Positions 17,923-54,770 of a stretch of 63,651 nucleotides of DNA are shown here, piece after piece. The position numbers and the translations under genes were made by a program. The notes under the pieces are model-generated. The model was not told the DNA's origin. It saw only the letters and a program-made list of their open reading frames with translations, and did no database searches. Origin of the DNA: Acidimicrobiales bacterium (GTDB lineage: Bacteria > Actinomycetota > Acidimicrobiia > Acidimicrobiales > VFJN01); the NCBI GenBank assembly GCA_030681555.1, contig JAUXRW010000038.1:1-63651 (forward strand), read 5' to 3'. How positions within the stretch are numbered: the first letter of the stretch is position 1; every line of letters starts with the position of its first letter.

Positions 17923-19233
17923 ATGGATCGATGGCGTGGCGCGCTCTCGAGGTTCCGCGTGTCCGCGCGGACCCTCCTGCTCGCGGCCACGACGGCCTTC
18001 GGCGTGGCCGCTGCGGTCGCGATCCTGCGCGTGACCGAGGTGTCCGAACCCCGGCTCACCCTGCCCGTGGAGCGGCCCGCTCGAACCCGGCCAACGGCGA
18101 TGCGGCAGACCACGGTCACCACCGGGCAGGGCGCCCCCACCACCCAGCTCTCCGACACCACTGCGTCGTCGCCGCCGGGTGGTGGAACGACCATCTCGGC
18201 CGGCCTCGCCTACCGCTGGTCACCGATCGCAGGGGTGGACGAATTCAGCGCGCCAGACGCGGGAGGCGGGCTGACCGCAGTCGCCGCCGTCGAGGGCGAG
18301 GGTCTGATCGCGGTAGGCGGCTCGCGCGACGCCCCGCTGGTCCTCGTGTCACCCGACGGGCTCGGTTGGTCCCGGGTCGATGCCGCGGAGGAGGATCTCC
18401 AGGGTGCCGCCCTGCGGGACGTCGCCGTGGTCGACGGTCGCCTCGTGGCCGTCGGATCACTGCGGGGCGCCCCCGCCGCCTGGACGTCGCTCGACGCCGT
18501 GCAGTGGAGCCGGGTGCCCGTGACCGACCCGGCCAACGAGCTGGGCGTCGGCCTGCTCGAGGCCCTGGCCCAGTCGCCTGACGGGTCGGTGTTCGCCGTG
18601 GGGTTCAGTCCCGGCAGCGCCGGCATCTGGGCCCTTCACGACGGTCGATTCGAGCCAGAGTCGTCCGCGAGGACACCGAGCGTCGGCCAGGTGCTCTCCG
18701 ATGTCGTCTCCACCTCGAAGGGTGTCGTCGCGGCCGGGAACGATGCTGAAGGCCAGCCCATCGCCCTCCGGTCGACGGGTGAGGGCACCTGGTCCACTGC
18801 GGTGCTCCCCGCCGAAGGTGGCCGTGCCTCGGTCGCCGCGCTGGGAGAGATCGGCGACGTCGTGGTCGCCGTGGGCTACGGCGTCCCGGGCCCGCTGGTT
18901 TGGTCGTCGGCAGACGCGCAGAGCTGGTCGGCCGTGACCGCCCCGACGACGTCCCCCGGCCGCCCCGCCGGGCTCTACGCGGTGGCACCGGGACCGGGTG
19001 GCGCGCTGGCCGGCGGTCAACGTCCCGGGGGACCGCTGTGCTCGTCCTCGACCGATGGAACGTCATGGTCCGAATGCGACGGCGAGGACGGGCTGCGGAC
19101 GGCGGCCGTGAGAGATCTTCTCGCCGTAGGCGCGGGTTTCGTCGCCGTCGGTACCTCGACGCCAGAGGACGGCCAGGCAGGTCCGGCCATATGGCACGTC
19201 GAACGTGAACCACGAGCAGCGCAGGCGCGCTGA
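17923..19233 (+). CDS. Exported beta-propeller-like protein with Asp-box-like repeats
   Basis: N-terminal hydrophobic helix, Thr/Pro linker, about 7 repeats of the form VAVG...WxSxDGxxW. Confidence 0.7.
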   Translation: MDRWRGALSRFRVSARTLLLAATTAFGVAAAVAILRVTEVSEPRLTLPVERPARTRPTAMRQTTVTTGQGAPTTQLSDTTASSPPGGGTTISAGLAYRWSPIAGVDEFSAPDAGGGLTAVAAVEGEGLIAVGGSRDAPLVLVSPDGLGWSRVDAAEEDLQGAALRDVAVVDGRLVAVGSLRGAPAAWTSLDAVQWSRVPVTDPANELGVGLLEALAQSPDGSVFAVGFSPGSAGIWALHDGRFEPESSARTPSVGQVLSDVVSTSKGVVAAGNDAEGQPIALRSTGEGTWSTAVLPAEGGRASVAALGEIGDVVVAVGYGVPGPLVWSSADAQSWSAVTAPTTSPGRPAGLYAVAPGPGGALAGGQRPGGPLCSSSTDGTSWSECDGEDGLRTAAVRDLLAVGAGFVAVGTSTPEDGQAGPAIWHVEREPRAAQAR

Positions 19234-19248
19234 AGGGGGAAGCAGAGA

Positions 19249-21057
19249 ATGGTCAACCCGGTCCTACGTCGATACACGCCGGTCATCATCTTCTTGGTGG
19301 CGCAGCTCCTCATCGTCGCGATGGTGCCTGTCGACGACGACGAGCTGTCCGCCAGCTCCAGCGTTACTTCCGGCTCGGGGCTCGTAGCTCAGCCCGGCGA
19401 CTCGGTCGTCGGTTCGGACGGCCAGCCGCTGTCGAGCGACGACGCGAGCCTCGTCGCCGGTACGAACGGCGAGGCTGCGCCCAGCGGCTCCGGCGGTGCG
19501 CAGGCGCTGCCCAGCGGGGCAGGGATCAAGCCGGCGCCTGGCGTCCAGGGCCTGGTGTCGGGTCTGAACGCTGCTGAAGAGGGCGTGTGGCCCTGGACGA
19601 ACCCTTGGCTCCTCGAGGGCGACCGGAGCAAGTGCGGCCCCGGCGGGCAGCTCCAGGACGAGGTGCTGGTGTTCTCGATCCCCTGCGTGCCTGCCTACAC
19701 GGGCGACAACGGCGGTGCGACCTACTCCGGCGTCACGGAGGACGAGATCCGGCTCGTGATGATCGTCCCCAAGGCCAACCCCGCCATCGTCGCCGCGCTG
19801 TCAGGCGTCGGCCTGTGGGCCACCCCTGAGCAGTGGGACGCCGGGGGCAAGGCCTTCGCCAAGTTCTTCAACGAGCACTACAACTTCTACGGCCGCCGCA
19901 TCAAGGCCTACACCCACCTGGCCGAGTGCGAGGGCGGCCCCTTCGGCGGCGGCGGCGGCTCCACCGACCTGGCCTGCTGGCGAGAGCAGGCCAGGATCAT
20001 CCAGGCCAAGTACAAGCCCTTCGTGACCTTCTTCACCTCCCCCCATCCTGCCGAGGTGTTCGACGAGCTGAGCCGGCTCAAGATCCTGAACGTGGGCGGC
20101 TGGCTGTACGACGCCGGCTTCAGCAAGGACCGGGCGCCCTACCACTGGGACCTGTTCACCGACGGCTCCCGCACGGCGGCCAACGTTGCCAACTACTGGT
20201 GCAACCGCATGGTCGGGCAGAAGGCGTCCCGAGCCGGCGACCCGGGCCTTAAGGACAAGGTCCGCAAGCTCGCCATCGTCACCCCGGAGTACCCCTTCTA
20301 CGTGTCGGCGGCGAAGTTCCTGGCCGAGCAGGTCTCGGGCGGCCAGTGCGGCGCCGGGGGCGACGTGCCGAAGGTCTACCAGTACTCCCAGTCGGACCTG
20401 GCCAAGGCGCAGGAGCAGATGACGCTCATCGCCACGCAGATCAAACAGGACCAGGCCACCACCGTCACCTGCCTCTGCGACCTTCTCGCTCCGGTGTACC
20501 TAACCAGCGAGCTCGACAACCAGCAGTGGTTCCCCGAGCACCTCCTGGCCCTGCAGGAGGGTGCCGACCACGACTACCCGGCCCGGCTCTACAGCCCCCG
20601 CCAGTGGGACAACGCCTTCGGACCCAGCCCCCGGCCGATGGAGATCCCCAAAGAGCAGCAGGACGACTACGTGATGTGGAAGATGGCCGGCAACACGTCC
20701 GAGCCTCCCTACGTGCTCACGGTCGTACAGATGTACTACCACCTCATCGCAGCGATGCTGCAGTGGGCCGGCCCCAACCTCACGCCCGAAACCGTGCAGC
20801 GGGGCGCCTTCAGCCTCTCCCAGCTCGGCGGGTTCGGGGGCGAGGCGCCCTGGCCCGGCTGGCAGGGCAACGATCCCCGGGTGCAGCTGTGGACCTTCGG
20901 CCCTGACGACTACACGGCCAACGACGACACCAAGGAGGTGTACTTCTCGTCCTCGGCGCGATCCCGCATCGACGACCAGCCCGGGACCTACATCTGCGCC
21001 AGGGACTGCGCTCGCACGCCCATTGCGGGCTGGTCGAAGGGCGCGCCGCTCCAGTGA
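19249..21057 (+). CDS. LIV/HAAT-type ABC substrate-binding protein (atypical, membrane-anchored)
   Basis: 602 aa; N-terminal TM without lipobox; GDNGGATYSGVTEDEIR, YGRRI; precedes the fused transporter. Confidence 0.8.
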   Translation: MVNPVLRRYTPVIIFLVAQLLIVAMVPVDDDELSASSSVTSGSGLVAQPGDSVVGSDGQPLSSDDASLVAGTNGEAAPSGSGGAQALPSGAGIKPAPGVQGLVSGLNAAEEGVWPWTNPWLLEGDRSKCGPGGQLQDEVLVFSIPCVPAYTGDNGGATYSGVTEDEIRLVMIVPKANPAIVAALSGVGLWATPEQWDAGGKAFAKFFNEHYNFYGRRIKAYTHLAECEGGPFGGGGGSTDLACWREQARIIQAKYKPFVTFFTSPHPAEVFDELSRLKILNVGGWLYDAGFSKDRAPYHWDLFTDGSRTAANVANYWCNRMVGQKASRAGDPGLKDKVRKLAIVTPEYPFYVSAAKFLAEQVSGGQCGAGGDVPKVYQYSQSDLAKAQEQMTLIATQIKQDQATTVTCLCDLLAPVYLTSELDNQQWFPEHLLALQEGADHDYPARLYSPRQWDNAFGPSPRPMEIPKEQQDDYVMWKMAGNTSEPPYVLTVVQMYYHLIAAMLQWAGPNLTPETVQRGAFSLSQLGGFGGEAPWPGWQGNDPRVQLWTFGPDDYTANDDTKEVYFSSSARSRIDDQPGTYICARDCARTPIAGWSKGAPLQ

Positions 21058-24000
21058 CCTCGCCCTCAGGCGCGTGGGTGGCTCGGCTGCGCACGGATCC
21101 CCGGCTCGGTCCCGTCCGGATGGCGGGCGCCACCCTCGCAGTGATCTTGGCGCTCCGGCTCGCCTTCCGACCCGGGGCCCCCCCGGGCGTGTTCCTCAAC
21201 GGCGCCATCGTCGGCGGCCTGTACGGGCTGATCGCGATGGGGCTCATCCTGATCTACAAGTCCGACCGCATCATCAGCTTCGCCCAGGCAGGTCTCGGCG
21301 CCTTCCCAGCGGTCCTGGCGCTGAACCTGTACATCCAGCGCGACTGGCCCTTTGCCCTGTGCCTGGTACTGGCTCTGGCCGGGTCCTTCGCCATCGGCGC
21401 CCTCGCCCAGCGCCTCATCATCCGCCGCTTCGCCTCCTCCCCACGCCTGATCCTCACCGTGGCCACGATCGGGCTGGCCCAGCTCCTGGCCTTCGCGGAG
21501 TTCATGAGCCCCACCTGGATCGGCGGTGAGGTGACCCCCACCGGGGCCGTGCGCACGCCGGTGAGCGGGATCACTGCGGACATCGGGGGCATCGTGTTCC
21601 GTGGCGACCACCTTGCTGCGGTCGTCGTCGTGGTCCTTGCCGCCCTCGGCCTGGGATGGTTCCTGAACGGGACCCGGGTGGGTGTGGCGGTCCGTGCGGT
21701 GGCCGAGAACCGTGACCGGGCCCAGCTCGCCGGCGTGCCCGTGGCCCGCCTCGGCACCATCGTATGGGGGGTGGCTGGGTTGCTCTCGGGCATCGGCGTG
21801 TTCTTCCGGGCGCCGATCACAGGGCTGCCACTCGGAAGCCTCATCGGGCCACAGGTGCTCCTGTTCGCCCTCGCAGCCGCGGTCATTGCTCGCATGGAAC
21901 GACTGGGCGTAGCCCTGCTGGCCGGCGCACTCCTGGGCATGTTCGACCAGGCGGCGTTCTACTCGACGCGCACGGCGAGCATCTCCACCGCTCTGCTCCT
22001 GCCCATCGTGCTCGCTGCCCTTTTGGTGCAGCGCCGTCACCTGTCCCGGGCGGCGGACTCCGGTAGCGCCACCTGGCAGGCGGTGCGACCCCTGCGCACG
22101 CTGCCTCCACTGGTCCGCCGCCTGCCCGAGGTGCGGGTGGCCCGCGGTCTCGGCGCGGGGCTCTTCGCCGCCCTCCTCCTGGGTGCGCCCTTCCTCGTCG
22201 ACGAGCTCCGCCGCAACGACCTCTCCCAGGTGCTCCTCTTCGGAGTCATCGCCGTCTCACTCGTGGTCCTCACGGGCTGGACCGGCCAGATCAGCCTCGG
22301 CCAGTTCGCCTTCACCGGCGTCGGCTCAGCGGTGGCCGGCGGCCTGGCGGGCAAGGCCGGCGCGGACTTCTTCGTCGCCCTCCTCCTCGGCGGCCTGGCC
22401 GGGGCGGCGCTGTCCATGGTCGTAGGCATCCCCGCGCTACGCGTCAAGGGCTTCTTCTTAGCCCTGACCACGTTGGCCTTTGCCGCCTCGACGCAGGCCT
22501 ACGTGCTCAACCGGGAGCACTTCTCATGGCTGCTCCCCGAGATCGGCGACGCCATCGATCGCCCCAAGCTGTGGGGCGTGCTCGACCTGCGATCCGATTC
22601 CTCCTACTACTTCACCTGCCTCGCCCTGCTGCTGCTCGCGGTCGCCGGCGCCCGCAACCTCCGTCGGTCGCGCGCCGGTCGGGCCCTGGTGGCCACCCGT
22701 GACAACGAGCGAGCAGCGCAGAGCTACGGCATCAACCTCGCACGCGCCCGCCTCGGCGCCTTCGCCATCGCCGGATTCCTGGCCGGGAGCGCGGGCGCTC
22801 TCTACGTGTACCTCTACGAGGCAGTCGACCCGGAGAGCTTCGGCTCGAGCCGGAGCATCGACGTGTTCGCCATGGCGGTGATCGGAGGGCTCGGCTCGAT
22901 CGGAGGCGGCTTGGCGGGGGCCGTCTACGTCGTCGGCATCAAGGAGTTCCTCCCGCGCTACGAGCTGTTGGCTTCGGGCGGCGGGCTCCTCCTGCTGCTC
23001 ATGTTCCTCCCCGGCGGGCTGGCCGAGGTGGGCGTGCGCCTGCGCGACGCCTTCGTGAAGCTCGTCGCCCGCCGCCACGGGCTCGACGAACGAGCGTTGA
23101 AGTGGGGGGTGGAGGACGAGGGCGCAGTCACCGTGCTCGATTCGCACGCCTCCACCGACCCGGCCCCTGTCGTGGTAGGAGCTTCCTCCGCCGACGACGC
23201 CACCCTTCTGTGCCGCGGCGTCGATGCCGGCTATGACCGGGTGCAGGTGCTCTACGGGATCGACCTCGAGGTGCACCGCGGGGAGATCGTGGCGCTACTG
23301 GGCACGAACGGCGCCGGGAAGAGCACGCTCCTGCGCACCATCTGCGGTCTCCAGCCGGCCACCGCCGGGTCGGTGCGGTTCCGGGGCGAGGAGATCGTCG
23401 GCACCTCGGCGAGCGACATCGCCCGCCAGGGCCTCGTCTACATGCCCGGAGGTCGCGGTGTGTTCCCCACGCTCAGCGTGGAGGAGAACCTGCAGGTAGC
23501 CACCTGGCTCCTCTCGCCCGAGGAGGCCGAGGGTGCGGTGGAACGGGCTCTGGAGCAGTTTCCCCGCCTGCAGGAACGGATCGGCCAGATGGCCGGCAAC
23601 CTCTCCGGCGGTGAGCAGCAGATGCTCTCGCTGGCGATGGCGTTCGTCATGGTCCCCGATCTGCTCGTGATCGACGAGCTGTCGCTGGGGCTGGCGCCCG
23701 TCGTGGTGGGCCAGCTGGTGGAGTTCGTCAAAGCGATGAACCGCGCCGGGACGACGGTGCTCATCGTCGAGCAGTCCGTCAACCTGGCCCTCACCCTGGC
23801 TGATCGGGCCTACTTCATGGAGAAGGGCCAGGTGCGGTTCACGGGACCGACAGCTGAGCTCCTCGAGCGCGGCGACCTCCTGCGGGCCGTGATGCTACGG
23901 GGGGGACCCGACACGCCCGAGCCCTCACCCGAGCCGGTGCCCGAAGCCATCCCGGCCGCATCTCGCCGGCCGATCGTGGCGACACCGGCCTCTCCGGCGG

Positions 24001-25121
24001 CTCCTGACGTCTCGCCCGAGGGGGCGGGCGGCAGCGAGCCTGCCCACACCGGTCCGCTCCTCTCCCTCACCGACGTGCGGAAGCGCTTCGGGGGGGTCAC
24101 CGCTGTCGCCGGTGCCACCTTCGAGGTCCACCCCGGCGAGGTCCTCGGCATCATCGGTCCGAACGGCGCCGGCAAGACCACGACGTTCGACCTCATCTCG
24201 GGCTTCCTCCAGCCCGACGCCGGACAGATCCAGTTCCTCGGGGAGGACATCACGGGCCGCGCCCCCGACGTGCGAGCCCGCGCTGGGCTGGGCCGACTGT
24301 TCCAGGACTCGCTCCTGTTCCCGTCGATGACCGTCACCGAGAACCTGGCGGTGGCGTTCGAGCGCCACATCCCCATCCACGACGACCTGGCCGCCCTGCT
24401 CGGCCTGCCGGAGGTCCGCCGGGCCGAGGGCGACATTGCCTGGTCGGTCCACGACCTCCTGGAGCTCTTCGACCTGGGTCTCGTGCGCGACCTGTTGGCA
24501 GGAGAGCTCTCCACCGGCACGCGGCGCGTCGTCGACCTCGCCATGGCCGTGGCCCACGCCCCCGCAGTCCTTCTGCTTGACGAGCCGTCCTCGGGGCTGG
24601 CCCAGCGCGAGACGGAGGCCTTGACCCCCATGCTGCGCCGCATCCAACGCGAGACAGGTGCGGCGATGGTGATCATCGAGCACGACATGAGCCTCATCAC
24701 CGAGGTGTCCGATCGGATGCTGGCCCTCGAGGTCGGCGTGGTAATCGCGCAGGGTTCGCCGTCTGAGGTCGTGTCCCATCCGCGGGTGGTGTCGTCCTAT
24801 CTGGGTGGCGACGACGCCGCCATCGGCCGCTCCGGCCCGCCACGGCGATCCACCGCACGTCGGGCGCCGGAGCCAGGCAACGGCACGGCGCCGGGAGGAC
24901 GGTCGGGGAAGGCCCCGGCCGAGCCGGGGCCCCAGCGGGCTGCGACGGCGAAGGCGTCGGCAACCGCCGCGAAGGCGAAGCCCAAGGCGGCTGCGACGCC
25001 CAACGGGTCGGGCGCCGATAACGCCAAGGCGAGCGGGGCCGGCATCCCCCGACGCGCGGCCCGATCACGTGACGAGACGCTCACCGCTGCGGGTTCGCGG
25101 CGGACGACGACGAAAGGATGA
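21054..25121 (+). CDS. Single-chain LIV-type ABC transporter (LivH-LivM-LivF-LivG fusion)
   Basis: 1355 aa; NFAQ-type LivH and GQISLGQ LivM TMDs; NBD1 GTNGAGKS/LSGGEQQM/DELSLGLAP; NBD2 GPNGAGKT/LSTG/DEPSSGL/EHDM. Confidence 0.92.
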   Translation: MTSPSGAWVARLRTDPRLGPVRMAGATLAVILALRLAFRPGAPPGVFLNGAIVGGLYGLIAMGLILIYKSDRIISFAQAGLGAFPAVLALNLYIQRDWPFALCLVLALAGSFAIGALAQRLIIRRFASSPRLILTVATIGLAQLLAFAEFMSPTWIGGEVTPTGAVRTPVSGITADIGGIVFRGDHLAAVVVVVLAALGLGWFLNGTRVGVAVRAVAENRDRAQLAGVPVARLGTIVWGVAGLLSGIGVFFRAPITGLPLGSLIGPQVLLFALAAAVIARMERLGVALLAGALLGMFDQAAFYSTRTASISTALLLPIVLAALLVQRRHLSRAADSGSATWQAVRPLRTLPPLVRRLPEVRVARGLGAGLFAALLLGAPFLVDELRRNDLSQVLLFGVIAVSLVVLTGWTGQISLGQFAFTGVGSAVAGGLAGKAGADFFVALLLGGLAGAALSMVVGIPALRVKGFFLALTTLAFAASTQAYVLNREHFSWLLPEIGDAIDRPKLWGVLDLRSDSSYYFTCLALLLLAVAGARNLRRSRAGRALVATRDNERAAQSYGINLARARLGAFAIAGFLAGSAGALYVYLYEAVDPESFGSSRSIDVFAMAVIGGLGSIGGGLAGAVYVVGIKEFLPRYELLASGGGLLLLLMFLPGGLAEVGVRLRDAFVKLVARRHGLDERALKWGVEDEGAVTVLDSHASTDPAPVVVGASSADDATLLCRGVDAGYDRVQVLYGIDLEVHRGEIVALLGTNGAGKSTLLRTICGLQPATAGSVRFRGEEIVGTSASDIARQGLVYMPGGRGVFPTLSVEENLQVATWLLSPEEAEGAVERALEQFPRLQERIGQMAGNLSGGEQQMLSLAMAFVMVPDLLVIDELSLGLAPVVVGQLVEFVKAMNRAGTTVLIVEQSVNLALTLADRAYFMEKGQVRFTGPTAELLERGDLLRAVMLRGGPDTPEPSPEPVPEAIPAASRRPIVATPASPAAPDVSPEGAGGSEPAHTGPLLSLTDVRKRFGGVTAVAGATFEVHPGEVLGIIGPNGAGKTTTFDLISGFLQPDAGQIQFLGEDITGRAPDVRARAGLGRLFQDSLLFPSMTVTENLAVAFERHIPIHDDLAALLGLPEVRRAEGDIAWSVHDLLELFDLGLVRDLLAGELSTGTRRVVDLAMAVAHAPAVLLLDEPSSGLAQRETEALTPMLRRIQRETGAAMVIIEHDMSLITEVSDRMLALEVGVVIAQGSPSEVVSHPRVVSSYLGGDDAAIGRSGPPRRSTARRAPEPGNGTAPGGRSGKAPAEPGPQRAATAKASATAAKAKPKAAATPNGSGADNAKASGAGIPRRAARSRDETLTAAGSRRTTTKG

Positions 25122-26206
25122 GCATGATGGGCAAGTTCGGACGAGGTCCCGGTCGGCTCGGCGCGGGGCTGGCGGCGGCGGCCTTCGCCGTGCTTGTCGT
25201 CACCCCCACGGCGGCGGCGGCTCCACGACAGGAAGATCCACCGGTGACGCTGCCTCCGCCGCCCGTCACGGTGCAGCAGGTGATCAACGAGCTGCTCCCG
25301 CTGATCCGCCAGCTCGATCCGCTGACCCAGCAGGTAGGGCCGGTGCTCGCCCAGCTCGACGGGCTCTTCGTCGCCGGAGGTGAGTTCGCGACCCAGTTCG
25401 CCGCCCTCGGTCAGCAGCTCGATCCGATCCTGTCCACCGCAGGGACCCCGATCGGCTCGCTGGGCGCGGCCCTGGAACCGCTGTTCGTCACCATCGACGA
25501 GCAGGTGTCCCCTCAATTGCAGGACCTGCTCGCGCTCCTCGGGCCCTACGTCAACCAGGTCGATCTCGCCACGGCGTTCCAGCTCATCGGGCCGCTCGCG
25601 CCGAGCGCCCTCAAGGTCATCCCCACGCTGAACAAGTTCTATGACGGCGTGGATGCGATCACGGGCCCGGTCACCTACCCGATCACCTGCCCGCTGGCCC
25701 GCGCCGTTCCCCAGCAGAAGCTGCTCGATATCGTCGTTCCCTTCCTGTGCTACGACACGCTGGCGGCGGTCGGCCAGATCTCCGATGGCGCGCCCGCCGA
25801 CCCGCTCCCACCCGCCGACATGCCCCCCAGCGATTCGGTGGAGGTGCCGGGAAACGATCCCGTCGCCGATCCCGTCGATCCCCTCACTGACCCCGTCGTT
25901 GATCCATCGGCGCTGACCTCGGGAGGGTCCTCGCTGGATGCCTTGCCCCCCCTGGCCTCGACGCCCACGGCATCGAGCAACAGCGTGCCAAGAGCGTCGG
26001 GTACGGCGGCCGAACCCCTCGCGACGCTCAACGCGAGCGACGCGCAGGTGGAAGCGCTCGAGGACCGCATGCGGCTCATGGCCATCCTCGCCGTCGCCAT
26101 CGGCGCTCTCCTGTGGAGCGCGTTCCGCGCCCCCGCGGATGACGGGAGGGGTGGGCTCGGGGCGTTCCGCAAGTCCCGTGCTGAGCCACCGCCAACGCTG
26201 AGCTGA
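25118..26206 (+). CDS. Secreted, C-terminally anchored helical protein (unknown)
   Basis: Signal peptide AAAAP, amphipathic helical repeats, Pro/Asp linker, TM LMAILAVAIGALLW, short tail. Confidence 0.75.
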   Translation: MSMMGKFGRGPGRLGAGLAAAAFAVLVVTPTAAAAPRQEDPPVTLPPPPVTVQQVINELLPLIRQLDPLTQQVGPVLAQLDGLFVAGGEFATQFAALGQQLDPILSTAGTPIGSLGAALEPLFVTIDEQVSPQLQDLLALLGPYVNQVDLATAFQLIGPLAPSALKVIPTLNKFYDGVDAITGPVTYPITCPLARAVPQQKLLDIVVPFLCYDTLAAVGQISDGAPADPLPPADMPPSDSVEVPGNDPVADPVDPLTDPVVDPSALTSGGSSLDALPPLASTPTASSNSVPRASGTAAEPLATLNASDAQVEALEDRMRLMAILAVAIGALLWSAFRAPADDGRGGLGAFRKSRAEPPPTLS

Positions 26207-26245: not shown

Positions 26246-27622
26246 TTGAGCACTCCCGCCCGTTCGCTTGGCCCTGCCCCCGCGAGCCTGCTCCTGCCCA
26301 AGTCCCGGCTGCGCAAGCGCCGAGCGGCGCGGATCGTGTGGACCGGTGTCCGCCACTCGGCGGTGTTCGGCGGACGCGTGATCCGGCGCCCCCGTAACGG
26401 TGTGGCCGCTCCCGGGGCATCGGAGATGCGGCGCGCCTTCGAGAACCTCGGCCCGACCTTCGTGAAGTTCGGTCAGGTCATCGCCTCGTCGCCGGCGTTC
26501 CCGGTGTCCCTGGTCCAGGAGTTCGAGCGGTGCCTCGACCAGGTACGCCCTGAGCCGATCGAGGCCGTGCGCCGGACGATCGAGGAGTCGATCGGTGATG
26601 TCGAGGAGCACTACGCCCGCGTCGACTGGACCCCGGTGGCCGCGGGTTCGATCGCACAGGTCTTCCGGGCCTGGGGCCACGACGGTGAGGCTCTCGTCAT
26701 CAAGGTGCAGAGACGCAACCTGCAGGAGGTGCTGCGCAACGACGTGCGGATGCTGCACCTCGGCGCACGCGCGATCTCCCGTGTCGTCCCATCGCTCCGG
26801 TCGATCAACCCTGTCGGCGTCGTCGAGGACTTCGCCGCCACGCTGGCCCAGGAGCTGAGCTTCGTCGAGGAGGCCAGGCAGATGGAGGTCCTGGCCGCCT
26901 CCCTGGAGGGCTGGCCGGTGCGTGTCCCCGAGGTCCGCTGGGACCGTACGACGGAGAAGGTCCTCACCATGACTCACCTCGAGGGCGTCAAGATCTCCGA
27001 CCTCGACGGCCTCGACCGCTACGGCGTCGACCGATCCAAGCTCGTCGACGTGGTTTTCGGCCTGCTGCTCTACACGGCGTGCCGCCACGGGATGTTCCAC
27101 GGTGACATGCACGCGGGGAACATCATCGTGCAGCCCGACGGGAAGGTCGCACTCATCGACTTCGGCATCGTGGGTCGGCTTCCGGGCCAGCTCCGCCTGC
27201 AGGTCTCCGAACTGCTCCAGTGCCTGTTCGAGGAGCGCTGGGATCGGCTGGCGCCCCTCTGCTTCGAGATGGCCGACATGGACGACGTGGACCTGGAGGG
27301 AGCGATCGGCGACCTCACCCAGGTGGCGGAGAAGTACCTGGCAATGCCCCTCCACGAGATGCCCCTCGCCGAGATGGTCGGCGACATCCTTCAGCGCTGC
27401 AACAAGTACGGGTTCGTGATGCCCTCAGACGTGATCTTGTTCTTCAAGAGCCTCATGTACCTCGATGGGCTGGGAATCCGGATCCACCCGGGCTATGAGG
27501 TGCTCAACCCCGAGCACGGCCTCGCGTTGCGGCCCTTCCTTGCGCCGGAGACCGGCGGGAGCCCCCAGGGCGTGGAGCCCACCTATGGCTACGAGAGCGT
27601 TCTGCAACTTGTCGATAACTGA
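26246..27622 (+). CDS. ABC1/UbiB/AarF-family atypical kinase/ATPase
   Basis: LGPTFVKFGQ, AGSIAQV, VIKVQR, FHGDMHAGN, DFG. Confidence 0.92.
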   Translation: MSTPARSLGPAPASLLLPKSRLRKRRAARIVWTGVRHSAVFGGRVIRRPRNGVAAPGASEMRRAFENLGPTFVKFGQVIASSPAFPVSLVQEFERCLDQVRPEPIEAVRRTIEESIGDVEEHYARVDWTPVAAGSIAQVFRAWGHDGEALVIKVQRRNLQEVLRNDVRMLHLGARAISRVVPSLRSINPVGVVEDFAATLAQELSFVEEARQMEVLAASLEGWPVRVPEVRWDRTTEKVLTMTHLEGVKISDLDGLDRYGVDRSKLVDVVFGLLLYTACRHGMFHGDMHAGNIIVQPDGKVALIDFGIVGRLPGQLRLQVSELLQCLFEERWDRLAPLCFEMADMDDVDLEGAIGDLTQVAEKYLAMPLHEMPLAEMVGDILQRCNKYGFVMPSDVILFFKSLMYLDGLGIRIHPGYEVLNPEHGLALRPFLAPETGGSPQGVEPTYGYESVLQLVDN

Positions 27623-27687: not shown

Positions 27688-27993
27688 GTGCCCACCGTTC
27701 GGGTCGAACCCGCCGGACTGGAGTTCGAGGTGGGGGCCGCGGAGACCATGATGGAGGCGGCACTGCGCCACGGCTATCGATGGCCCACGATCTGCGGGGG
27801 CCGGGGGCAATGCCGTGCATGTTTCGTCGAGGTGCTCGACGGGGGTGACCAGTTCGGCCCGATCGGGAGATGCGAGGCTGAGGGGATCCAGATCCTTGCC
27901 GAGAGCGGTGAGGATCCGGCAGCTGTGCGGCTGGCCTGTCAGGCCAGCGTCCGCGGTTCGGTGACGGTGCGCAAGCGAGGTGTTCGTAGGTGA
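27688..27993 (+). CDS. [2Fe-2S] ferredoxin
   Basis: CGGRGQCRAC...RLACQ. Confidence 0.9.
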   Translation: MPTVRVEPAGLEFEVGAAETMMEAALRHGYRWPTICGGRGQCRACFVEVLDGGDQFGPIGRCEAEGIQILAESGEDPAAVRLACQASVRGSVTVRKRGVRR

Positions 27994-28060
27994 CACGACG
28001 CCGCAGGCGGCGTGGTGGATGGACGTGGATCCAGCTGAATGGGAGAGGGAGAGCAACCTG

Positions 28061-30201: not shown

Positions 30202-30202
30202 G

Positions 30203-34622: not shown

Positions 34623-34631
34623 GGAGACACC

Positions 34632-34988
34632 ATGGCCACCACGCACCCGCTCATGGCGGAAGAGCACGAGGACGAGGTCCTCGATCGCGAGCCGGCACCG
34701 CGGCGCCGGGAGGTCGACTGGCGACAGCCGATGGCCTACGTGGCCATGGGTTTCTCCCTCCTCTCCTTCCTCGTCGGCTGGTTCCAGATCGCCAACACCG
34801 AGCAGGAGTGGGAGCAGCTCCCCTATCTCGCCTCGGCCGGTGGCGTCGGCGTCGTCGCCCTCGGGGTTGCAGTGGCGCTGCTCGTGTCGATCGAGCACAC
34901 CCGCGATCGTGAGGCGGTTGGCGAGCTGCTGAAGGAGATCCGCTCGCTGAAGCGGCGGATCGAGGCCATGGACAGCAGCACCGGGTGA
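34632..34988 (+). CDS. Small 2-TM membrane protein with QxPYLxS motif
   Basis: 118 aa; TM-EWEQLPYLASA-TM then coiled-coil; AAGGAG RBS. Confidence 0.78.
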   Translation: MATTHPLMAEEHEDEVLDREPAPRRREVDWRQPMAYVAMGFSLLSFLVGWFQIANTEQEWEQLPYLASAGGVGVVALGVAVALLVSIEHTRDREAVGELLKEIRSLKRRIEAMDSSTG

Positions 34989-35040
34989 TGACGACAGCGG
35001 CTCCGACCCCGGAGCCCCGGACGCGCAGGGAGACATCGCA

Positions 35041-47688: not shown

Positions 47689-49068
47689 ATGCGACGAACG
47701 ATGAAGGTGTTGGCCATGTTGAGCACGCTCGGTCTACTGGCCGCGTGTGCTTCCACCGTCCCGGGCGGCGCAGGTCAGAACGCGGCGCTCGCCACCCGAA
47801 ACCAAGCCACCGGCGGTCTTGGCCCGACGGCGGCAACCGGGCCCGGACAGACCTCCGGGCCCGGACAGACCTCAACCCAAGCTAGCGGCAACGACCAGAC
47901 TGCCGCAGTCGGTGACGGATCGCAGGCCGACGCGGCCGGACCTGCCCAGGCAGCCAGCGGGGACCCGATCAAGATCGGCGCGATCTTTCCAGTGGGCTCG
48001 GGTTTCGGACAGGTGCTCGACGCGAACGGGCTGATCGGCATCTCGGAGAAGTACATCGCCAAGATCAACGCGGAGGGCGGCATCAATGGCCGGCCGGTGC
48101 AACTCGTTTGGTACGACGACGGCTTCGACCCGACCAAGGGCGTCGAGCTCGTCCGCAAGCTCGTCGAACAGGACCAGGTGCTCGCGCTCGTGAACCCCAT
48201 CACGACCTTCACGATCGAAAACGCAGCGCAATATCTGGCCGACAACGGTGTGACCACGATCGCGCCTGACGGGTACCAGGCGATCTCGTACCAATCGCCG
48301 TGGATCTACCCGGTCACCAACTTCTTTGACCGGCAGGGCTACCGCATCGGCAAATACCTGAGTTGCGATCTCGGCATCAAGCGCGTCGGCGTCTGGAGCA
48401 TCGGTACCTATGACGGGTCCCGTCGCGGCGGCGATGCGATCGTGAAGGGAGTCCAGGAGTGTGGCGGCACCGTGACCGACCGCGAGGATGTGTCGATGTG
48501 GGAGGCGAATTTCACGCCGTTCATCCTGCGCATGCGCGGCTCCAACCCGGACGTCATTGCCTCATCGATGCACCCCCTCGGCGACGCCCTCATGGTCACG
48601 ACTGCCCAGGCGCAGAACTACAAGCCGCCGAAGGGGATGATGTTCCTCTCCGCCACGGCAGGTTTCAGCGCGATCGCCGAGGGCTTTGGCGACTACGGCA
48701 ACGGTTTCTACGCAGTCTCGGAGTTCGACGGCGCCTCGGTGAGCGCCGACAACCAGAAGTTCCAGGAGTTCGCTTCTTGGGCGCGCGACAACGGGTTCAA
48801 TCCGCTCGATCGGTTCCCACAACAGATGTGGGCCGGGTTGGAGATCTTCCGCACGGCCGCGACGAGCGCAGGGGCCAACCTCGACCGGGCGAGCTTCAAA
48901 GCAGCGCTCGACGCGCTGCCGGCATTCGATTTCGGCTTCGCTTGCCAACCGATCCAGTTCGGCGCAGGGCCCCACGACCCGAACCCTTGCCTGCGGGTGG
49001 TCCAGTGGGACGCGAGCGACAAGGTTTGGAACACGGTCGTCCCATTCGCTCCAGCACCGAAGCCCTGA
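47689..49068 (+). CDS. LIV/HAAT-type ABC substrate-binding lipoprotein
   Basis: Lipobox LLAAC, Thr/Gly/Gln linker, DPIKIG, GGINGRPVQLVWYDDG. Confidence 0.92.
   Translation: MRRTMKVLAMLSTLGLLAACASTVPGGAGQNAALATRNQATGGLGPTAATGPGQTSGPGQTSTQASGNDQTAAVGDGSQADAAGPAQAASGDPIKIGAIFPVGSGFGQVLDANGLIGISEKYIAKINAEGGINGRPVQLVWYDDGFDPTKGVELVRKLVEQDQVLALVNPITTFTIENAAQYLADNGVTTIAPDGYQAISYQSPWIYPVTNFFDRQGYRIGKYLSCDLGIKRVGVWSIGTYDGSRRGGDAIVKGVQECGGTVTDREDVSMWEANFTPFILRMRGSNPDVIASSMHPLGDALMVTTAQAQNYKPPKGMMFLSATAGFSAIAEGFGDYGNGFYAVSEFDGASVSADNQKFQEFASWARDNGFNPLDRFPQQMWAGLEIFRTAATSAGANLDRASFKAALDALPAFDFGFACQPIQFGAGPHDPNPCLRVVQWDASDKVWNTVVPFAPAPKP
47837..47872 (+). repeat. Exact 18-bp tandem duplication in the SBP linker
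   Basis: CCGGGCCCGGACAGACCT twice (GPGQTS repeat). Confidence 0.8.
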
Positions 49069-49071
49069 TCG

Positions 49072-50712: not shown

Positions 50713-50752
50713 TCGACGAATCCAGCGTTTGCGCTCGAGAGGGGATTGCTCA

Positions 50753-51199
50753 ATGACCGCCTCCCATTCGACCCCGGACCCGACCGACGGGGTCACGGAG
50801 GGCCAAACGACGAACCGCCGGCACCCCGGCATACCTCTGGATCGCAGCCTCACGATGCTCGTGCTTGGCATGGTGTCGGGAGCAGGGGGCCTTGTCGGCA
50901 TGTTCGTCTCGCTCAGCCGAGTCCGGCCCGAACCCGAGGTGTTCCGTCAATTCCCCTACCTCATCAGCGCGATCATCGCGACGGGCTTCTTCGTCGTCGG
51001 CGCCATCCTGGTGCTCGGCCACTTCGTCTGGCGTTCGTACCAGGAGACGCGGACCCTGACGCGCGAGTTGGAGGAAGCGGCGGCCGCCCTCATGTGGGAA
51101 CAGCTCGGGCTGCCAGCGGCGAACGGCTCACCGCCCGCGTCGGAGCCCGATCGAGGGGCGCGGCCGCTCACCTCAGCGCGGCGCAACACGGGTAGATGA
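50753..51199 (+). CDS. Small 2-TM membrane protein with QxPYLxS motif
   Basis: 148 aa; TM-EVFRQFPYLISA-TM then coiled-coil. Confidence 0.78.
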   Translation: MTASHSTPDPTDGVTEGQTTNRRHPGIPLDRSLTMLVLGMVSGAGGLVGMFVSLSRVRPEPEVFRQFPYLISAIIATGFFVVGAILVLGHFVWRSYQETRTLTRELEEAAAALMWEQLGLPAANGSPPASEPDRGARPLTSARRNTGR

Positions 51200-52059
51200 G
51201 CGAGTTCACCCAGTTCCTGATCATTGGCCTCGTGACAGGGGTCCTCTACGCGCTTATCGCTCTGGGCATCATCTTCATCTATCGAGGCTCGAACATCGTC
51301 AACTTCGGCCACGGCGGCTTCGCTGCCCTCGGCGCCTTTGCCTTCGTGTCGGTGTATGACAAGGGCAGCCGGCCCTACGCCCTCGCTCTGCTGGCCGCGT
51401 GTGTTCTGACCGCGGCCATCGCGGGGGTCGCACAACAGATCGCCATCCGTCAGGTCGTCGATCGTGATCCCATCGATGGAGCAGTGATCACCCTTGGCTT
51501 GTTGACCATCCTGACGTTCAGCATCGGGATCGTGTGGGGCGCCACCCCCCGCCAGATGCCGCAAGCCTTTGGCAGCGAAGGTATGACGATCGGCGACCTG
51601 GTGGTGAGCTACCACCAGGTCATGGCGGTCGTCATCGGCGTTGCCCTCTTCACCGCGGTAGGCTTCTTCCTGCAGGCCACCCGCATGGGCCGCGCCTTCC
51701 GGGCGATCTCCGAGAAGCGCCAGGTCGCACAGCTGATGGGCATACCCACCCCCGCGTACGACCTCGGAGTGTGGATGCTCGGAGGAGCGATCGCGGCACT
51801 TGCCGGCATCTTGGTGGCGCCCACGACCGGCCTCACCACGACGGCACTCACGTTCATCATGGTCAAGGCCTTGGCCGCCGCCATGATCGGCCAGCTGGTC
51901 AGCATCCCGCGCACGATCGTCGGCGCCCTGGCCATCGGAGTGGCGGAGAGCATGGCGATCTGGAAACTGCCAGATGTCACCGGCATCCGGGAGATCCTTG
52001 CCTTCGCAGTCATCACCGGAGCCCTGCTTCTCGCCCCGCGTGAGCGAGTGCTCGCATGA
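51196..52059 (+). CDS. LivH-like ABC permease
   Basis: YALIALG, VNFGHG, TRMGRAFRA, ALAAAMIG. Confidence 0.93.
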   Translation: MSEFTQFLIIGLVTGVLYALIALGIIFIYRGSNIVNFGHGGFAALGAFAFVSVYDKGSRPYALALLAACVLTAAIAGVAQQIAIRQVVDRDPIDGAVITLGLLTILTFSIGIVWGATPRQMPQAFGSEGMTIGDLVVSYHQVMAVVIGVALFTAVGFFLQATRMGRAFRAISEKRQVAQLMGIPTPAYDLGVWMLGGAIAALAGILVAPTTGLTTTALTFIMVKALAAAMIGQLVSIPRTIVGALAIGVAESMAIWKLPDVTGIREILAFAVITGALLLAPRERVLA

Positions 52060-54050
52060 ACCGAACTGACGAGGCCGAGTCGTCGGAGCGCACCTCGGTG
52101 GGCGAAGCACACCGGGCCCCGACGCAGGTCAACCCGCTATGGCGTCTCTTCGTTGCTCGCCAGGCGATGCGCGGAGGCGTTCTCGCAAGCCGGGGTCAGG
52201 CGATGCTCGCCACCGAACGGCGCCGACGCCAGGGCCTGCAGCGGCGCTGGGAAGGTGCCACACCAACGCAACGTCGAGTCTTGACCGCGGTCGCCGTCGT
52301 GGCCGCCAGCGTGTATCCGTTCATCGTTGACTCGGTCTGGACCTACGTTGCGCTGCTGGCCATCGTCGGCTCAGTGATCGGGCTCAGCTTCATCGTGCTC
52401 ATCGGCTGGTCGGGCCTCGTCTCGTTCGCGCAGGCAACGCTCATGGGCATCGGGGCCTACACCGCATTCCACTTCGATCGGGCTGGCTGGCCATTCCCGA
52501 TCGCAATCCTCGGGAGTGGTCTGGTCGTGGCCGCGGCAGCCGCGATAATGGGGATCCCTGGGCTCCGGTTACGAGGCCTCAGCCTCGGGATCCTCACGCT
52601 CGCGTTCGCGGGGGTCGGCGATGGGGCAGTCTTCGCGAACCGCTGGTTCACCGGCGGCGTCCAAGCGGGCGCAGTCCTGAAGCCGGCTTCGCTCTTTGGC
52701 ATCGACCTCGTGACGAATCGGTCGTTCTACTACGCGAGCTGGGCCGTGCTGCTGCTGCTGCTCATCGCGCTGCGCAACATCCAGCGGCGCAGCAGCGGAC
52801 GAACCTTTCTCGCCGTCAAGAGCTCCGAGGCGGGCGCGATCGCCACCGGCTTGAACCCATCGGGCGTGAAGATCGAAGCGTTCGTGCTGAGCGGTTTCCT
52901 GGCCGGGGTCGCCGGTGCGCTCTTCGCTTACTCGCTGCGCTCCCTTGCCGCCTACTCCTTCGCGGTCCCGGTGTCGCTGAACCTGGCAGTGGTCTCGGTC
53001 GTCGGCGGAGTGAACAACCTCATCGGGGCGCTCCTTGCTGGCTTCGTGTACGCGTTCGCTCCCGCGCTCGTCACCGACTGGGGCATCTCGGGCGACTGGG
53101 TGTGGATCGGGACTGGTGCGTCGCTGATCCTCCTGGTGATCGTGAACCCGACTGGGCTCGGCGGGTTGGCCGCGCGCTGGCTCAACCTGCCCGACCGGCC
53201 CGAGCCGATCGGACCTGTCCGCTCGGCCAGGTCCGCGCCGCCACGCGCCCGGCTGCTTGAGCACACCCGAAGCGACCTCTCCGGACGCGGGCTGCTGCTG
53301 TCGGTCGACGCACTCAGCCAATCGTTCGGCGGCGTCTCCGCCCTGCGAGACGTGTCGCTCGAGGTGCAGCGAGGCTCCATCACTACGCTCATCGGTCCGA
53401 ACGGCGCTGGCAAGTCGACGCTGTTCCGGGTCGTCACCGGCCAGATCAAGCCCGACCATGGCCGGGTGGCCTTCGCTGGGAACGACATCACCACCGTTGC
53501 GTCCCACAAGCGGGCGCAACGAGCGTTGAGCTGGACGTACCAGAGCAATCAGCTCTTCGGGGAGCTCACCGTTGCCGAGAATCTCATGGTTGCTCTGCAT
53601 CGGCATCGTCCGTGGGACATCCTGACCGATGCGGTGGGACTTCCGGCCAGCACCAGGCGGGAGCGTTCGCTCCGGCAGGAGGCCGACGAGCTGCTCGAGC
53701 TCAGCCAGCTCGGTGCCTTCCGAGACCGCCGTGTTTCCGATCTCCCCTTCGGGGCTCAGCGGCGTGTTGATGTGACCCGAGCGGTCGCGCTTCGGCCGTC
53801 GCTGCTCCTCCTCGACGAGCCGGCGACCGGCATGAACCCCGAGGAGACAGCGGACTTCGGCGAGTACCTGCGGCGGCTGCACGACGATCGGGACGTCACG
53901 CTGTTGTTCATCGAACACGACATGGAGCTGGTGATGTCGCTGTCGGACTATGTGTATGTGCTCGACTTCGGACAGCTCATCGCAGAGGGAACTGCCGCGC
54001 AGGTTCGGGCGAACCCGCGGGTCATCGATGTCTACCTTGGCAAAGGCTGA
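52056..54050 (+). CDS. Fused LivM permease-LivG ATPase
   Basis: GLVSFAQ TMD followed by GPNGAGKS, LPFG, DEPATG, EHDM. Confidence 0.93.
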   Translation: MNRTDEAESSERTSVGEAHRAPTQVNPLWRLFVARQAMRGGVLASRGQAMLATERRRRQGLQRRWEGATPTQRRVLTAVAVVAASVYPFIVDSVWTYVALLAIVGSVIGLSFIVLIGWSGLVSFAQATLMGIGAYTAFHFDRAGWPFPIAILGSGLVVAAAAAIMGIPGLRLRGLSLGILTLAFAGVGDGAVFANRWFTGGVQAGAVLKPASLFGIDLVTNRSFYYASWAVLLLLLIALRNIQRRSSGRTFLAVKSSEAGAIATGLNPSGVKIEAFVLSGFLAGVAGALFAYSLRSLAAYSFAVPVSLNLAVVSVVGGVNNLIGALLAGFVYAFAPALVTDWGISGDWVWIGTGASLILLVIVNPTGLGGLAARWLNLPDRPEPIGPVRSARSAPPRARLLEHTRSDLSGRGLLLSVDALSQSFGGVSALRDVSLEVQRGSITTLIGPNGAGKSTLFRVVTGQIKPDHGRVAFAGNDITTVASHKRAQRALSWTYQSNQLFGELTVAENLMVALHRHRPWDILTDAVGLPASTRRERSLRQEADELLELSQLGAFRDRRVSDLPFGAQRRVDVTRAVALRPSLLLLDEPATGMNPEETADFGEYLRRLHDDRDVTLLFIEHDMELVMSLSDYVYVLDFGQLIAEGTAAQVRANPRVIDVYLGKG

Positions 54051-54770
54051 ATGATGCTGCAAGCGACAGGTGTGTCCGCAGGCTACGGCGACCTCGAGGT
54101 GTTGCGTTCCATCAACATCCGTGTCGCTCCTCGGCAGATCAATGCCCTCTTCGGCGCCAACGGCGCCGGGAAGACGACGACATTGAGCGTCCTGACCGGC
54201 TTGATCTCGCCATGGTCTGGCACCGTCGAACTCGATGGCGCGAGCATGCGCGGGCGTAGGGCCGACCAAGTTGCCCGCGCCGGAGTCGCGATGGTGCCAG
54301 AGGGTCGCGGGATCTTCGCTCGCCTCACGGTCGAGGAGAACCTCCAAATCGGCGCGTACCACATGCCGCCCGGCGTCCGATACAGCGAGGAGCTCGACCG
54401 GGTGGTGCTGTTGTTCCCCCGGCTCGCGGAGCGTCGCAAGCAGATGGCGGGCACGCTCTCGGGCGGCGAGCAACAGATGCTCGCGATCGGTCGCGCGCTC
54501 ATCCGCCAGCCCCGCTTCCTCCTCGTCGATGAGCTCTCGCTCGGTCTGGCGCCGGTGGTCGTGGACGAGCTGTTCGCGGTGCTTCCCCGTATCGCGGCTG
54601 ACGGTGTTGGGGTCCTGCTTGTCGAGCAGTTCGTCGAGCGTGCGTTGCGAGTCGCGACCGATTGCTTCGTCATGGAGAAGGGGGCGATCGTGATCGACGC
54701 GCCGGCCGCGACGTTGCGTGACAACCCGGAGATGCTGCGCGCCGCGTACCTCGGCGCGGCGATGACCTGA
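54051..54770 (+). CDS. LivF-like ABC ATPase
   Basis: GANGAGKT, LSGGEQQM, DELSLGLAP, VEQ. Confidence 0.93.
   Translation: MMLQATGVSAGYGDLEVLRSINIRVAPRQINALFGANGAGKTTTLSVLTGLISPWSGTVELDGASMRGRRADQVARAGVAMVPEGRGIFARLTVEENLQIGAYHMPPGVRYSEELDRVVLLFPRLAERRKQMAGTLSGGEQQMLAIGRALIRQPRFLLVDELSLGLAPVVVDELFAVLPRIAADGVGVLLVEQFVERALRVATDCFVMEKGAIVIDAPAATLRDNPEMLRAAYLGAAMT

Follow-up and report, generated by a model that had tools for sequence, protein, structure and literature searches.

ATP-binding cassette (ABC) importers that rely on a binding protein are textbook five-part machines, and conserved extra membrane subunits are rare among them. The contig JAUXRW010000038.1 of an Acidimicrobiales bacterium (assembly GCA_030681555.1; all 63,651 nucleotides (nt) of it are referred to as the window) raises the question of whether one family of such importers has additional subunits after all. 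The window holds three transporters of the Liv type, called Sys1, Sys2, and Sys3 below, and each includes a gene for a large secreted protein anchored at its C terminus (acc1, acc2, and acc3); Sys2 and Sys3 also include a gene for a small protein with two transmembrane (TM) segments (small2 and small3). An earlier reading of the DNA letters, the original prediction, had regarded these proteins as dedicated accessories of a lipid importer. We find that proteins of the acc2/acc3 and small2/small3 types form a pair that is strictly co-located and co-inherited with Liv operons across Acidimicrobiia and other Actinomycetota. It is very likely that they are dedicated transporter accessories, probably components of a textbook transporter that have so far gone undescribed. 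In our preferred reading, the window contains three divergent members of a large actinobacterial Liv/HAAT branch with operon-encoded extra membrane proteins, and the accessories aid organic-acid uptake; the chances of this fuller reading are about even.

Three Liv-type systems with additional membrane proteins

The window is contig C3 of a 3.28-Mb genome (162 contigs, ~69% G+C), whose other contigs are numbered in the same way. Pfam and tblastn/phmmer searches agree with the original prediction on three Liv-type systems at 19249–26206, 29479–36585, and 47689–54770, and on their differing fusion states: H-M-F-G is a single chain in Sys1, LivH and LivM are fused in Sys2, and LivM and LivG are fused in Sys3. 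The genes of the three systems are listed below.

19249..21057, + strand: Sys1, SBP1, membrane-tethered substrate-binding protein (SBP) of 602 amino acids (aa); TM-like residues 5–23, linker 29–101
21054..25121, + strand: Sys1, transporter in one 1355-aa chain; two BPD_transp_2 and two ABC_tran domains, BCA_ABC_TP_C at residues 1230–1255 (Pfam)
25118..26206, + strand: Sys1, acc1, 362 aa, secreted and C-terminally anchored; a family of its own, unrelated to acc2 and acc3
29479..30201, + strand: Sys2, F2, LivF-type ATPase (phmmer, E 2.4e-55)
30203..31108, + strand: Sys2, G2, LivG-type ATPase (phmmer, E 2.8e-53); start most likely the GTG at 30203
31105..32637, + strand: Sys2, acc2, ACC family, 510 aa; signal peptide, beta-rich ectodomain with four invariant Cys, linker 398–473, TM segment 481–499
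32637..34622, + strand: Sys2, HM2, fused LivH-LivM permease, 661 aa; two stretches of BPD_transp_2 (Pfam)
34632..34988, + strand: Sys2, small2, two-TM hairpin, 118 aa; loop EQLPYLASAGG, charged helical C-terminal tail (family profile, E 1e-14)
35041..36585, + strand: Sys2, SBP2, lipoprotein-type Peripla_BP_6 (Pfam, E 3.7e-33); 91-residue Gly-rich linker
47689..49068, + strand: Sys3, SBP3, lipoprotein-type Peripla_BP_6 (Pfam, E 1.9e-53); linker of ~75 residues
49072..50712, + strand: Sys3, acc3, ACC family, 546 aa; signal peptide, beta meander, helical hairpin, ACC domain 250–420, linker 419–493, TM segment 493–511
50753..51199 (start approximate), + strand: Sys3, small3, two-TM hairpin, ~148 aa; motif RQFPYLISA (family profile, E 1.9e-8), 4-nt overlap with H3
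51196..52059, + strand: Sys3, H3, LivH permease (phmmer/tblastn)
52056..54050, + strand: Sys3, MG3, LivM-LivG fusion, 664 aa; BPD_transp_2, ABC_tran, and BCA_ABC_TP_C (Pfam)
54051..54770, + strand: Sys3, F3, LivF ATPase (phmmer)

All parts expected of a HAAT transporter (TC 3.A.1.4) were found. Two BPD_transp_2 permease domains are present in the Sys1 chain and in HM2, and Sys3 has one in MG3 next to the separate H3. The LivG-type ATPase with BCA_ABC_TP_C and the LivF-type ATPase are represented by the two ABC_tran domains of Sys1, by MG3, and by F2, G2, and F3 (Pfam, phmmer); since the second ABC domain of the Sys1 chain carries BCA_ABC_TP_C, the order in that chain is H-M-F-G. Pfam places SBP2 and SBP3 in the binding-protein family Peripla_BP_6 (COG0683). 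The nearest solved structures are 4n03 and 3ip5 for SBP2 (E 1e-7 to 1e-6) and 4zpj and LivJ for SBP3 (E 3e-12 to 6e-11). SBP1, which has paralogues on contigs C86 and C135 of the host genome, matched nothing in Pfam, NCBIfam, or PDB sequences and was connected to the other two through profile-profile comparison: a three-paralogue alignment on the SBP1 side was compared to an SBP2/3-type alignment (hhalign probability of 97.8%, E 7e-13, 341 columns). By this comparison, SBP1 is a very divergent protein of the periplasmic-binding-protein fold.

The long N-terminal tethers that had been proposed for the SBPs are present on all three, with linkers of 73 to 91 residues. In SBP2 and SBP3, a lipobox-like signal is followed by a Gly/Ala/Ser/Thr-rich linker of 75 to 91 residues; in SBP1, a TM segment is followed by a 73-residue linker. 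Junctions within the three systems are 4-nt overlaps or gaps of 0 to 52 nt, and the Sys1 chain has 4-nt overlaps on both sides, with SBP1 and with acc1. The three large accessory proteins have a common topology, consisting of an N-terminal hydrophobic signal segment, a low-complexity stalk of 75 to 100 residues, and one C-terminal TM-like segment. Pairwise BLASTP among acc1, acc2, and acc3, and between small2 and small3, revealed nothing significant, and profiles were required to compare them.

acc2 and acc3 share a homologous domain

We use the name ACC for the ~190-residue central beta domain common to acc2 and acc3. A profile of this domain was built from acc2 homologues and relatives found in the genome search, with the acc3 family excluded. 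The acc3-free profile matched residues 250–397 of acc3 (hhalign probability of 95.9%, E 6e-9; hmmsearch E 5.8e-13). Therefore, acc2 and acc3 share a homologous domain. Both combine a signal peptide, the ACC domain, and a C-terminal TM anchor, a combination not found in acc1, and a C-terminal hydrophobic segment is present in 69 of 70 ACC homologues. The full-length acc2 subfamily is rare (13 homologues), and a scan of genome contigs with an acc2-only alignment returned no relatives. Residues of the TM anchor and cytoplasmic tail are invariant in the acc2 family while the stalk is variable, and the same pattern was observed in the acc1 family. This suggests a specific partner at the membrane.

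An exhaustive profile search gave 3,114 ACC representatives (at 50% identity) at E ≤ 1e-3 and 823 at E ≤ 1e-30, mostly 410 to 550 residues long and matched over their full length. None of 73 full-length ACC proteins matched a Pfam family; 48 of them matched the NCBIfam entry NF040603, "choice-of-anchor P" (E ≤ 0.01, best 2.3e-13). Both window proteins fall under the cut-off of this entry, acc2 with 22.3 bits (E 1e-4) against a cut-off of 27 and acc3 with no match. The ACC domain is catalogued only under a name that denotes variable anchoring and no function, with neither a Liv link nor a hairpin partner in it; the hairpin and acc1 are without a family. AlphaFold2 models of acc2 (13 sequences; beta-rich, pLDDT 58.7) and acc3 (73 sequences; pLDDT 69.4 overall and 85 to 97 across the ACC domain) both have long antiparallel strands, with an N-terminal three-strand meander and central sheets.

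Four genomes of the same genus as the host genome (loci L011, L013, L018, and L021, from genomes G010, G021, G009, and G013) contain an ACC open reading frame (ORF) of 900 to 930 aa in the order SBP – big ACC – HM – G – F. Its N-terminal ~450 residues form a polytopic hydrophobic region, with no stop before the signal-like segment, ACC domain, and anchor that follow. In these ORFs, ACC seems to be fused to a membrane domain with multiple TM segments, and such membrane-integral variants count in favor of our preferred reading.

The small protein is a conserved membrane hairpin

small2 and small3 carry the motifs QLPYLAS and QFPYLIS between their two hydrophobic segments. Neither protein matched a Pfam or NCBIfam family or a PDB sequence. 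The family core from other genomes reads LGWYGA..T....EQ(I/V)PYLISGGLLGL, and both window proteins have what we take as the mark of the family, namely, the loop motif (E/Q)xPY(L/M)xS(G/A) in a two-TM protein beside ACC in a Liv operon. A hidden Markov model (HMM) of the hairpin was built without window sequences and searched against the 28,588 six-frame ORFs of the genome. Exactly four ORFs matched: small2, small3, a Sys2 paralogue on C133, and the ORF after a Liv operon (LivF) on C80. An independent model thus recovers both of the small QxPYLxS proteins that had been predicted for Sys2 and Sys3. The alignment of all hairpins was too diverse for a pattern scan, and a narrower set was used for that purpose. 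Charged residues flank the hairpin at both ends, which by the positive-inside rule turns its conserved loop outward.

Many hairpins of relatives (L012, L015, L016, L017, L022, L023, L025, L026, and L029) end in a conserved Cys/His motif, HRxxC...CxxC, that is absent from small2 and small3. This tail has the look of a zinc ribbon and gives a weak match to Pfam DUF6233 (E 0.0024). An apparent hairpin-ACC fusion in L016, L019, and L029 was rejected: stop-to-stop frames are over-extended in high-GC DNA, and the real starts precede the hairpin.

The ACC-hairpin pair is co-inherited with Liv operons

According to the original prediction, the accessory proteins are additions to the canonical livKHMGF set, and profile searches for their co-occurrence with Liv genes would test it. 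We carried out such searches at several scales, and every assessable pair locus was inside a Liv operon. Among 41 genomes of relatives, 17 contain the ACC domain, and Liv permease genes are adjacent in 20 of the 20 loci fetched. In an even draw of genomes from the phylum, 48 of 401 (~12%) contain it, with up to 8 scored hits per genome. From these, a phylum-wide set of 40 loci, one per genome, was ranked by E-value; the best 26 of the 40 all have the order (SBP)-H-M-G-F-ACC-small, and Liv genes were shown at 28 of the 40.

The reverse search, a scan of species-representative genomes seeded with the hairpin only, returned 112 relatives, and the 80 loci from named genomes were kept. ACC lies directly upstream in 76 of them; in the other 4, the contig begins less than 800 nt before the hairpin gene. 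Of the 76 loci, 70 include Liv genes, and the contig start truncates the remaining 6. The canonical order is H-M-G-F-ACC-small (60+ loci), from which the gene order in the window differs. The host genome has ~11 Liv systems covering ~4% of its length, and with every assessable pair locus inside a Liv operon, the association is far beyond chance.

In a tree of LivH proteins, one clade with 99/96 support comprises 72 rows, 71 of them ACC-linked. The window systems are outside this clade, on separate long branches: Sys1 with C86 and C135, Sys2 with C133 and L084, and Sys3 with C50. By record, hosts of the pair are metagenome-assembled genomes (MAGs) of Acidimicrobiia (Microthrixaceae, Acidimicrobiaceae), MAGs labelled "Frankiales" or "Mycobacteriales", and one isolate, Actinospongicola halichondriae Hal317.

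It is highly improbable, in view of these data, that the accessories are unrelated envelope or surface proteins hitch-hiking in Liv operons. Choice-of-anchor P proteins do occur in many contexts, and weaker hits of the domain are not Liv-linked. However, hitch-hiking accounts poorly for co-location in every assessable locus across distant lineages, for the translational coupling of the genes, for a linkage that is kept while operon position varies by lineage, and for co-inheritance with one LivH clade.

Two sets of loci stand apart. In a subclade of Acidimicrobiia that includes A. halichondriae, the operon reads SBP-H-M-ACC-small, and the fetched flanks of up to 9 kb on each side contain no gene for an ABC ATPase (L132, L133, L136, L140, L145, L147, L152, L153, L156, L163, L167, L184, and L188); the ATPases are presumably encoded elsewhere and shared. 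A complete H-M-G-F-ACC-small locus, L126 (CAZTOV010000055.1), is on a MAG contig labelled "uncultured Burkholderiales" and nests among Actinomycetota in the LivH tree. The label is probably a binning error rather than a sign of gene transfer.

Sys1 has an unrelated accessory protein of the same topology

acc1 found no match in Pfam, NCBIfam, or PDB sequence searches, and none of its 17 homologues has a Pfam domain. Homology to the ACC family was considered and rejected (hhalign probability of 6%). The idea that every system contains the same large secreted, C-anchored protein therefore survives as a statement about topology, which all three share, and fails as one about identity. acc1, too, is linked to its transporter: in 6 of 6 readable contigs, its homologues lie directly 3′ of the C-terminal end of a system-1-type fused transporter gene (64 to 78% identity). 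Ectodomain, two Cys, TM flank, and cytoplasmic tail are invariant in the family, and the stalk is variable.

Anchored ectoproteins beside Liv operons recur in the host genome with non-homologous proteins. The Liv operons on C86 and C135 are preceded by other secreted, C-anchored proteins (C86:8325-9788 and C135:12546-14006), as is the one on C80 (C80:4889-6694); these are 486 to 601 aa long. Their homology to ACC is not supported (hhalign probability of ≤35%).

Neighboring genes and likely substrates

Four genes border the three systems.

17923..19233, + strand: extracytoplasmic protein of 436 aa, anchored at its N terminus; repeated W-S motifs that resemble a beta-propeller; 15 nt upstream of SBP1
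26246..27622, + strand: ABC1/UbiB-family atypical kinase, 39 nt after acc1 (Pfam ABC1, E 1.4e-57)
27980..29482, + strand: FAD_binding_2 flavoprotein (Pfam), first gene of the Sys2 operon; its stop overlaps the F2 start by 4 nt
54869..55276, + strand: RidA (Ribonuc_L-PSP; Pfam, E 8.7e-22), directly after Sys3; the same neighbor is found in related contig L035

Other neighbors in the window are a P450, an SCP-x-type thiolase, short-chain dehydrogenases, an enoyl-CoA hydratase, two acyl-CoA dehydrogenases, a FadD-type ligase, a Rieske oxygenase, TetR regulators, and 2-oxoacid dehydrogenase E1 and E2. The FAD_binding_2 gene is translationally coupled to Sys2, with an OYE/FadH-type reductase after it; both fit substrates of the organic-acid class. 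PimC-like and PimA-like proteins are also present, under the cut-offs of their families. Synteny of each system is kept in close relatives; for Sys2, the arrangement around acc2 recurs in GCA_037024455.1, and the genes ahead of Sys3 in relatives encode IclR, a PaaA/PaaC-like protein, and an indolepyruvate-oxidoreductase-like enzyme.

To estimate which neighbors are enriched, accessorised loci from other genomes (41 of them, each spanning at least 15 kb) were compared to random 18.3-kb windows of the host genome.

Acyl-CoA dehydrogenase: near 61% of accessorised loci, in 14% of random windows
CoA ligase: 39% and 12%
Enoyl-CoA hydratase: 34% and 7%
Thiolase: 20% and 6%

Transport of branched-chain or other amino acids, urea, or amides belongs to the definition of the HAAT family; the 3- to 5-fold enrichment seen here speaks for organic acids that the cell activates to CoA esters. 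In contrast, all neighboring enzymes stay far below the NCBIfam cut-offs specific for steroids or bile acids, with 188 bits against 789 for KstD and 405 against 825 for BaiCD, and the FAD_binding_2 gene remains far under the cut-offs of all its NCBIfam matches (flavocytochrome c, KstD, TcuA). A lipid- or steroid-specific role is not indicated. Of the catabolic context invoked in the original prediction, the acyl-CoA part is borne out by enrichment, the steroid-specific part is not, and Sys3 lies among genes for 2-oxoacids and aromatic acids; the proposed lipid, steroid, or terpenoid substrate is not supported, and no steroid-specific enzyme is present.

The same prediction suggested that the accessories turn Liv into a multi-subunit importer of lipids, steroids, or terpenoids, possibly a functional analogue of Mce. 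We consider such an importer in place of Mce very unlikely. There is a real likeness to the Mce systems of Actinomycetota and their Mce-associated membrane proteins, since these, too, are ABC importers with several anchored extracytoplasmic extras in a context of hydrophobic-substrate catabolism. The P450, the SCP-x-type thiolase, the Rieske oxygenase, the FadD/FadE/Ech-type enzymes, and UbiB fit such a role. The ABC1/UbiB kinase is the next gene after the acc1 homologue in 3 of 4 related contigs with a visible downstream gene (L036, L038, and L039), and members of the Microthrixaceae are known lipid specialists (PMC8267870). However, acc1, acc2, acc3, small2, and small3 gave no Pfam hit and contain neither an MCE (MlaD) domain nor a detectable lipid-binding fold. 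The permeases are of the BPD_transp_2 type rather than YrbE/MlaE, and soluble-type SBPs are present, which Mce systems do without. The statement that mce genes are missing from the window is correct; it does not carry the argument built on it, because the host genome contains 18 MCE-domain (MlaD, PF02470) genes in at least three six-gene mce operons (contigs C1, C16, C138, and C84). The Liv systems are therefore no stand-in for a missing Mce.

A further alternative is that the three systems are ordinary amino-acid or 2-oxoacid importers whose extra proteins adapt them to the actinobacterial envelope, for example, by keeping the tethered SBP close to the permease, for polar and nonpolar substrates alike. 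Amino acids are the best-known substrates of the Liv family, and lipoprotein binding proteins of monoderm bacteria commonly carry long tethers. The RidA gene and the 2-oxoacid dehydrogenase E1/E2 genes near Sys3 or elsewhere in the window point the same way, as do the indolepyruvate-oxidoreductase-like and PaaA/PaaC-like proteins among the conserved Sys3 neighbors. We nevertheless think this explanation quite unlikely, given that acyl-CoA metabolism is enriched among neighbors, that the SBPs are far from LivJ/K (E 1e-7 to 1e-12), and that other Liv systems of the same genome do without accessories.

How the accessories may contribute to uptake

In our preferred reading, in which the accessories aid organic-acid uptake, the ACC protein is a single-pass protein that displays its choice-of-anchor-P-type, beta-rich ectodomain on a 75-residue Pro/Ser/Thr stalk above the C-terminal TM helix. 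The hairpin has an invariant loop that faces outward, E/Q-x-P-Y-L-x-S-G-G, and a helical tail on the cytoplasmic side. Both accessories may sit in the membrane beside the LivHM permease as auxiliary subunits. The accessory stalks (75 to 100 residues) match the SBP tethers (73 to 91 residues), which would put ectodomain and SBP at the same height in the wall zone, at about equal distance from the membrane. There, the ectodomain could gather organic acids of poor solubility (fatty, alicyclic, or aromatic) or hand them to the SBP, and the cell would convert the imported acids to CoA esters and degrade them by the neighboring enzymes.

A stronger version makes ACC and the hairpin structural subunits of an envelope-reaching machine, in which the ectodomain extracts insoluble hydrophobic acids and loads the tethered SBP, and the hairpin couples to the permease, as a monoderm counterpart of FadL/Mce-type capture. 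We put it forward as a tentative idea that is unlikely as it stands. Were it true, an entire branch of the "branched-chain amino acid transporters" of uncultured Actinomycetota, the lipid-specialist Microthrixaceae among them, would be misannotated hydrophobic-substrate uptake systems.

ACC and the hairpin could instead act outside the transport path, as assembly, stability, or regulatory factors, for instance, in gating or sensing with a signal passed through the hairpin tail. The HRxxC...CxxC ending of many hairpins and the conserved cytoplasmic tails of ACC and acc1 would suit such a function, and the closest Sys3 paralogue in the host genome, on C50, lacks both accessories, as expected of non-essential modulators. 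However, the hairpins of the window have no Cys/His motif, Pfam and NCBIfam searches revealed no DNA-binding or kinase domain in the accessories, and it is difficult to see why a purely cytoplasmic regulator should have a large conserved ectodomain on a long stalk. We regard this possibility, too, as unlikely.

Several observations weigh against the preferred reading of accessories that aid organic-acid uptake. Of the 40 phylum-wide loci, 11 have no detectable Liv genes; all are weak ACC-domain hits and may be other choice-of-anchor-P proteins. The C50 paralogue (C50:1307-5558) is SBP-H-MG with neither an ACC nor a hairpin gene in between, so the core transporter can exist without accessories, or the accessories act in trans. 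The acc2 and acc3 models remained unmatched when compared with the PDB by Foldseek (best E 4.5e-3 and 9e-3, TM-scores of 0.1 to 0.2), and the fold therefore gives no hint of ligand binding; outer-membrane barrels were not used as a fold match, as they aligned only through long beta strands. The control for neighbor enrichment is rough, since the random windows come from one genome. The surroundings of Sys3 (RidA, IclR, and the PaaA/PaaC-like and indolepyruvate-oxidoreductase-like genes) fit aromatic or amino-acid-derived acids and point to 2-oxoacids of that origin rather than lipids. Lastly, a search for expression found no RNA data, and the sequence was matched only in groundwater DNA runs.

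Relation to described transporters

Compared to E. coli LivJ/K-LivHMGF, the window systems are alike in their two BPD_transp_2 permeases, their LivG-type (BCA_ABC_TP_C) and LivF-type ATPases, and their Peripla_BP_6-type SBPs. They differ by the presence of ACC and the hairpin or of acc1, by permease/ATPase fusions, and by the long SBP tethers, and the similarity of their SBPs to LivJ/K is remote. Similar in context are the COG0683 systems of Rhodopseudomonas palustris, such as RPA3723-3725 by pimFABCDE, in which a Liv transporter for hydrophobic organic acids stands beside CoA ligase and beta-oxidation genes (PMC3223731). That organism is known to have Liv-type proteins that bind fatty, dicarboxylic, and aromatic acids; the systems are described with SBP, permeases, and ATPases only, and no counterpart of ACC, the hairpin, or acc1 is reported (PMC3223731). 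Re-use of Liv transporters for hydrophobic acids is thus already known, and the accessories are what is new. Microthrix genome papers list operons of this kind as livFGHMK, for branched-chain amino acid transport (PMC8267870). A full-text literature search found no description of ACC, hairpin, or acc1 accessories and no paper that uses the term "choice-of-anchor P". The systems apparently represent an undescribed variant of a known transporter family.

This add-on of two proteins is the hallmark of an entire Liv-family branch: it has ~3,100 representatives, is present in ~12% of the sampled genomes of the phylum, and reaches at least 8 copies in a genome. Most hosts are uncultured Acidimicrobiia and other Actinomycetota, from soil, groundwater, and activated sludge. 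Should the add-on have a part in taking up organic acids of poor solubility, the way these abundant lineages acquire carbon would be read differently, and ABC importers would have a new accessory principle. This is testable in the one isolate with the module, A. halichondriae Hal317. To this picture, the window, together with its genome, contributes an unrelated accessory family of the same topology (acc1), shuffled gene orders, and a paralogue without accessories.

Other features of the window

The 436-aa protein encoded upstream of SBP1 matched no Pfam family and has no similarity to ACC; whether it is part of Sys1 is uncertain. The ABC1/UbiB kinase downstream of acc1 scores 307 bits against the NCBIfam UbiB model, under the cut-off of 487 bits, and lies outside any quinone-biosynthesis context. 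Transposase genes of the insertion sequence (IS) type are found between Sys2 and Sys3, at 42570–43463 and 46420–46890 (DUF4096 and DDE_Tnp_1 on the + strand, an rve integrase core on the − strand). Since they separate Sys2 from Sys3, the threefold clustering of the systems is partly incidental. The 2-oxoacid dehydrogenase E2 gene at 41628–42407 encodes the catalytic domain only. At 4340–6525, a P-type ATPase is divided between two overlapping ORFs, an N-terminal part with E1-E2_ATPase (5437–6525) and a C-terminal part with the hydrolase domain (4340–5602); it adjoins an intact heavy-metal P-type ATPase at 370–2646 and may be a frameshifted copy.

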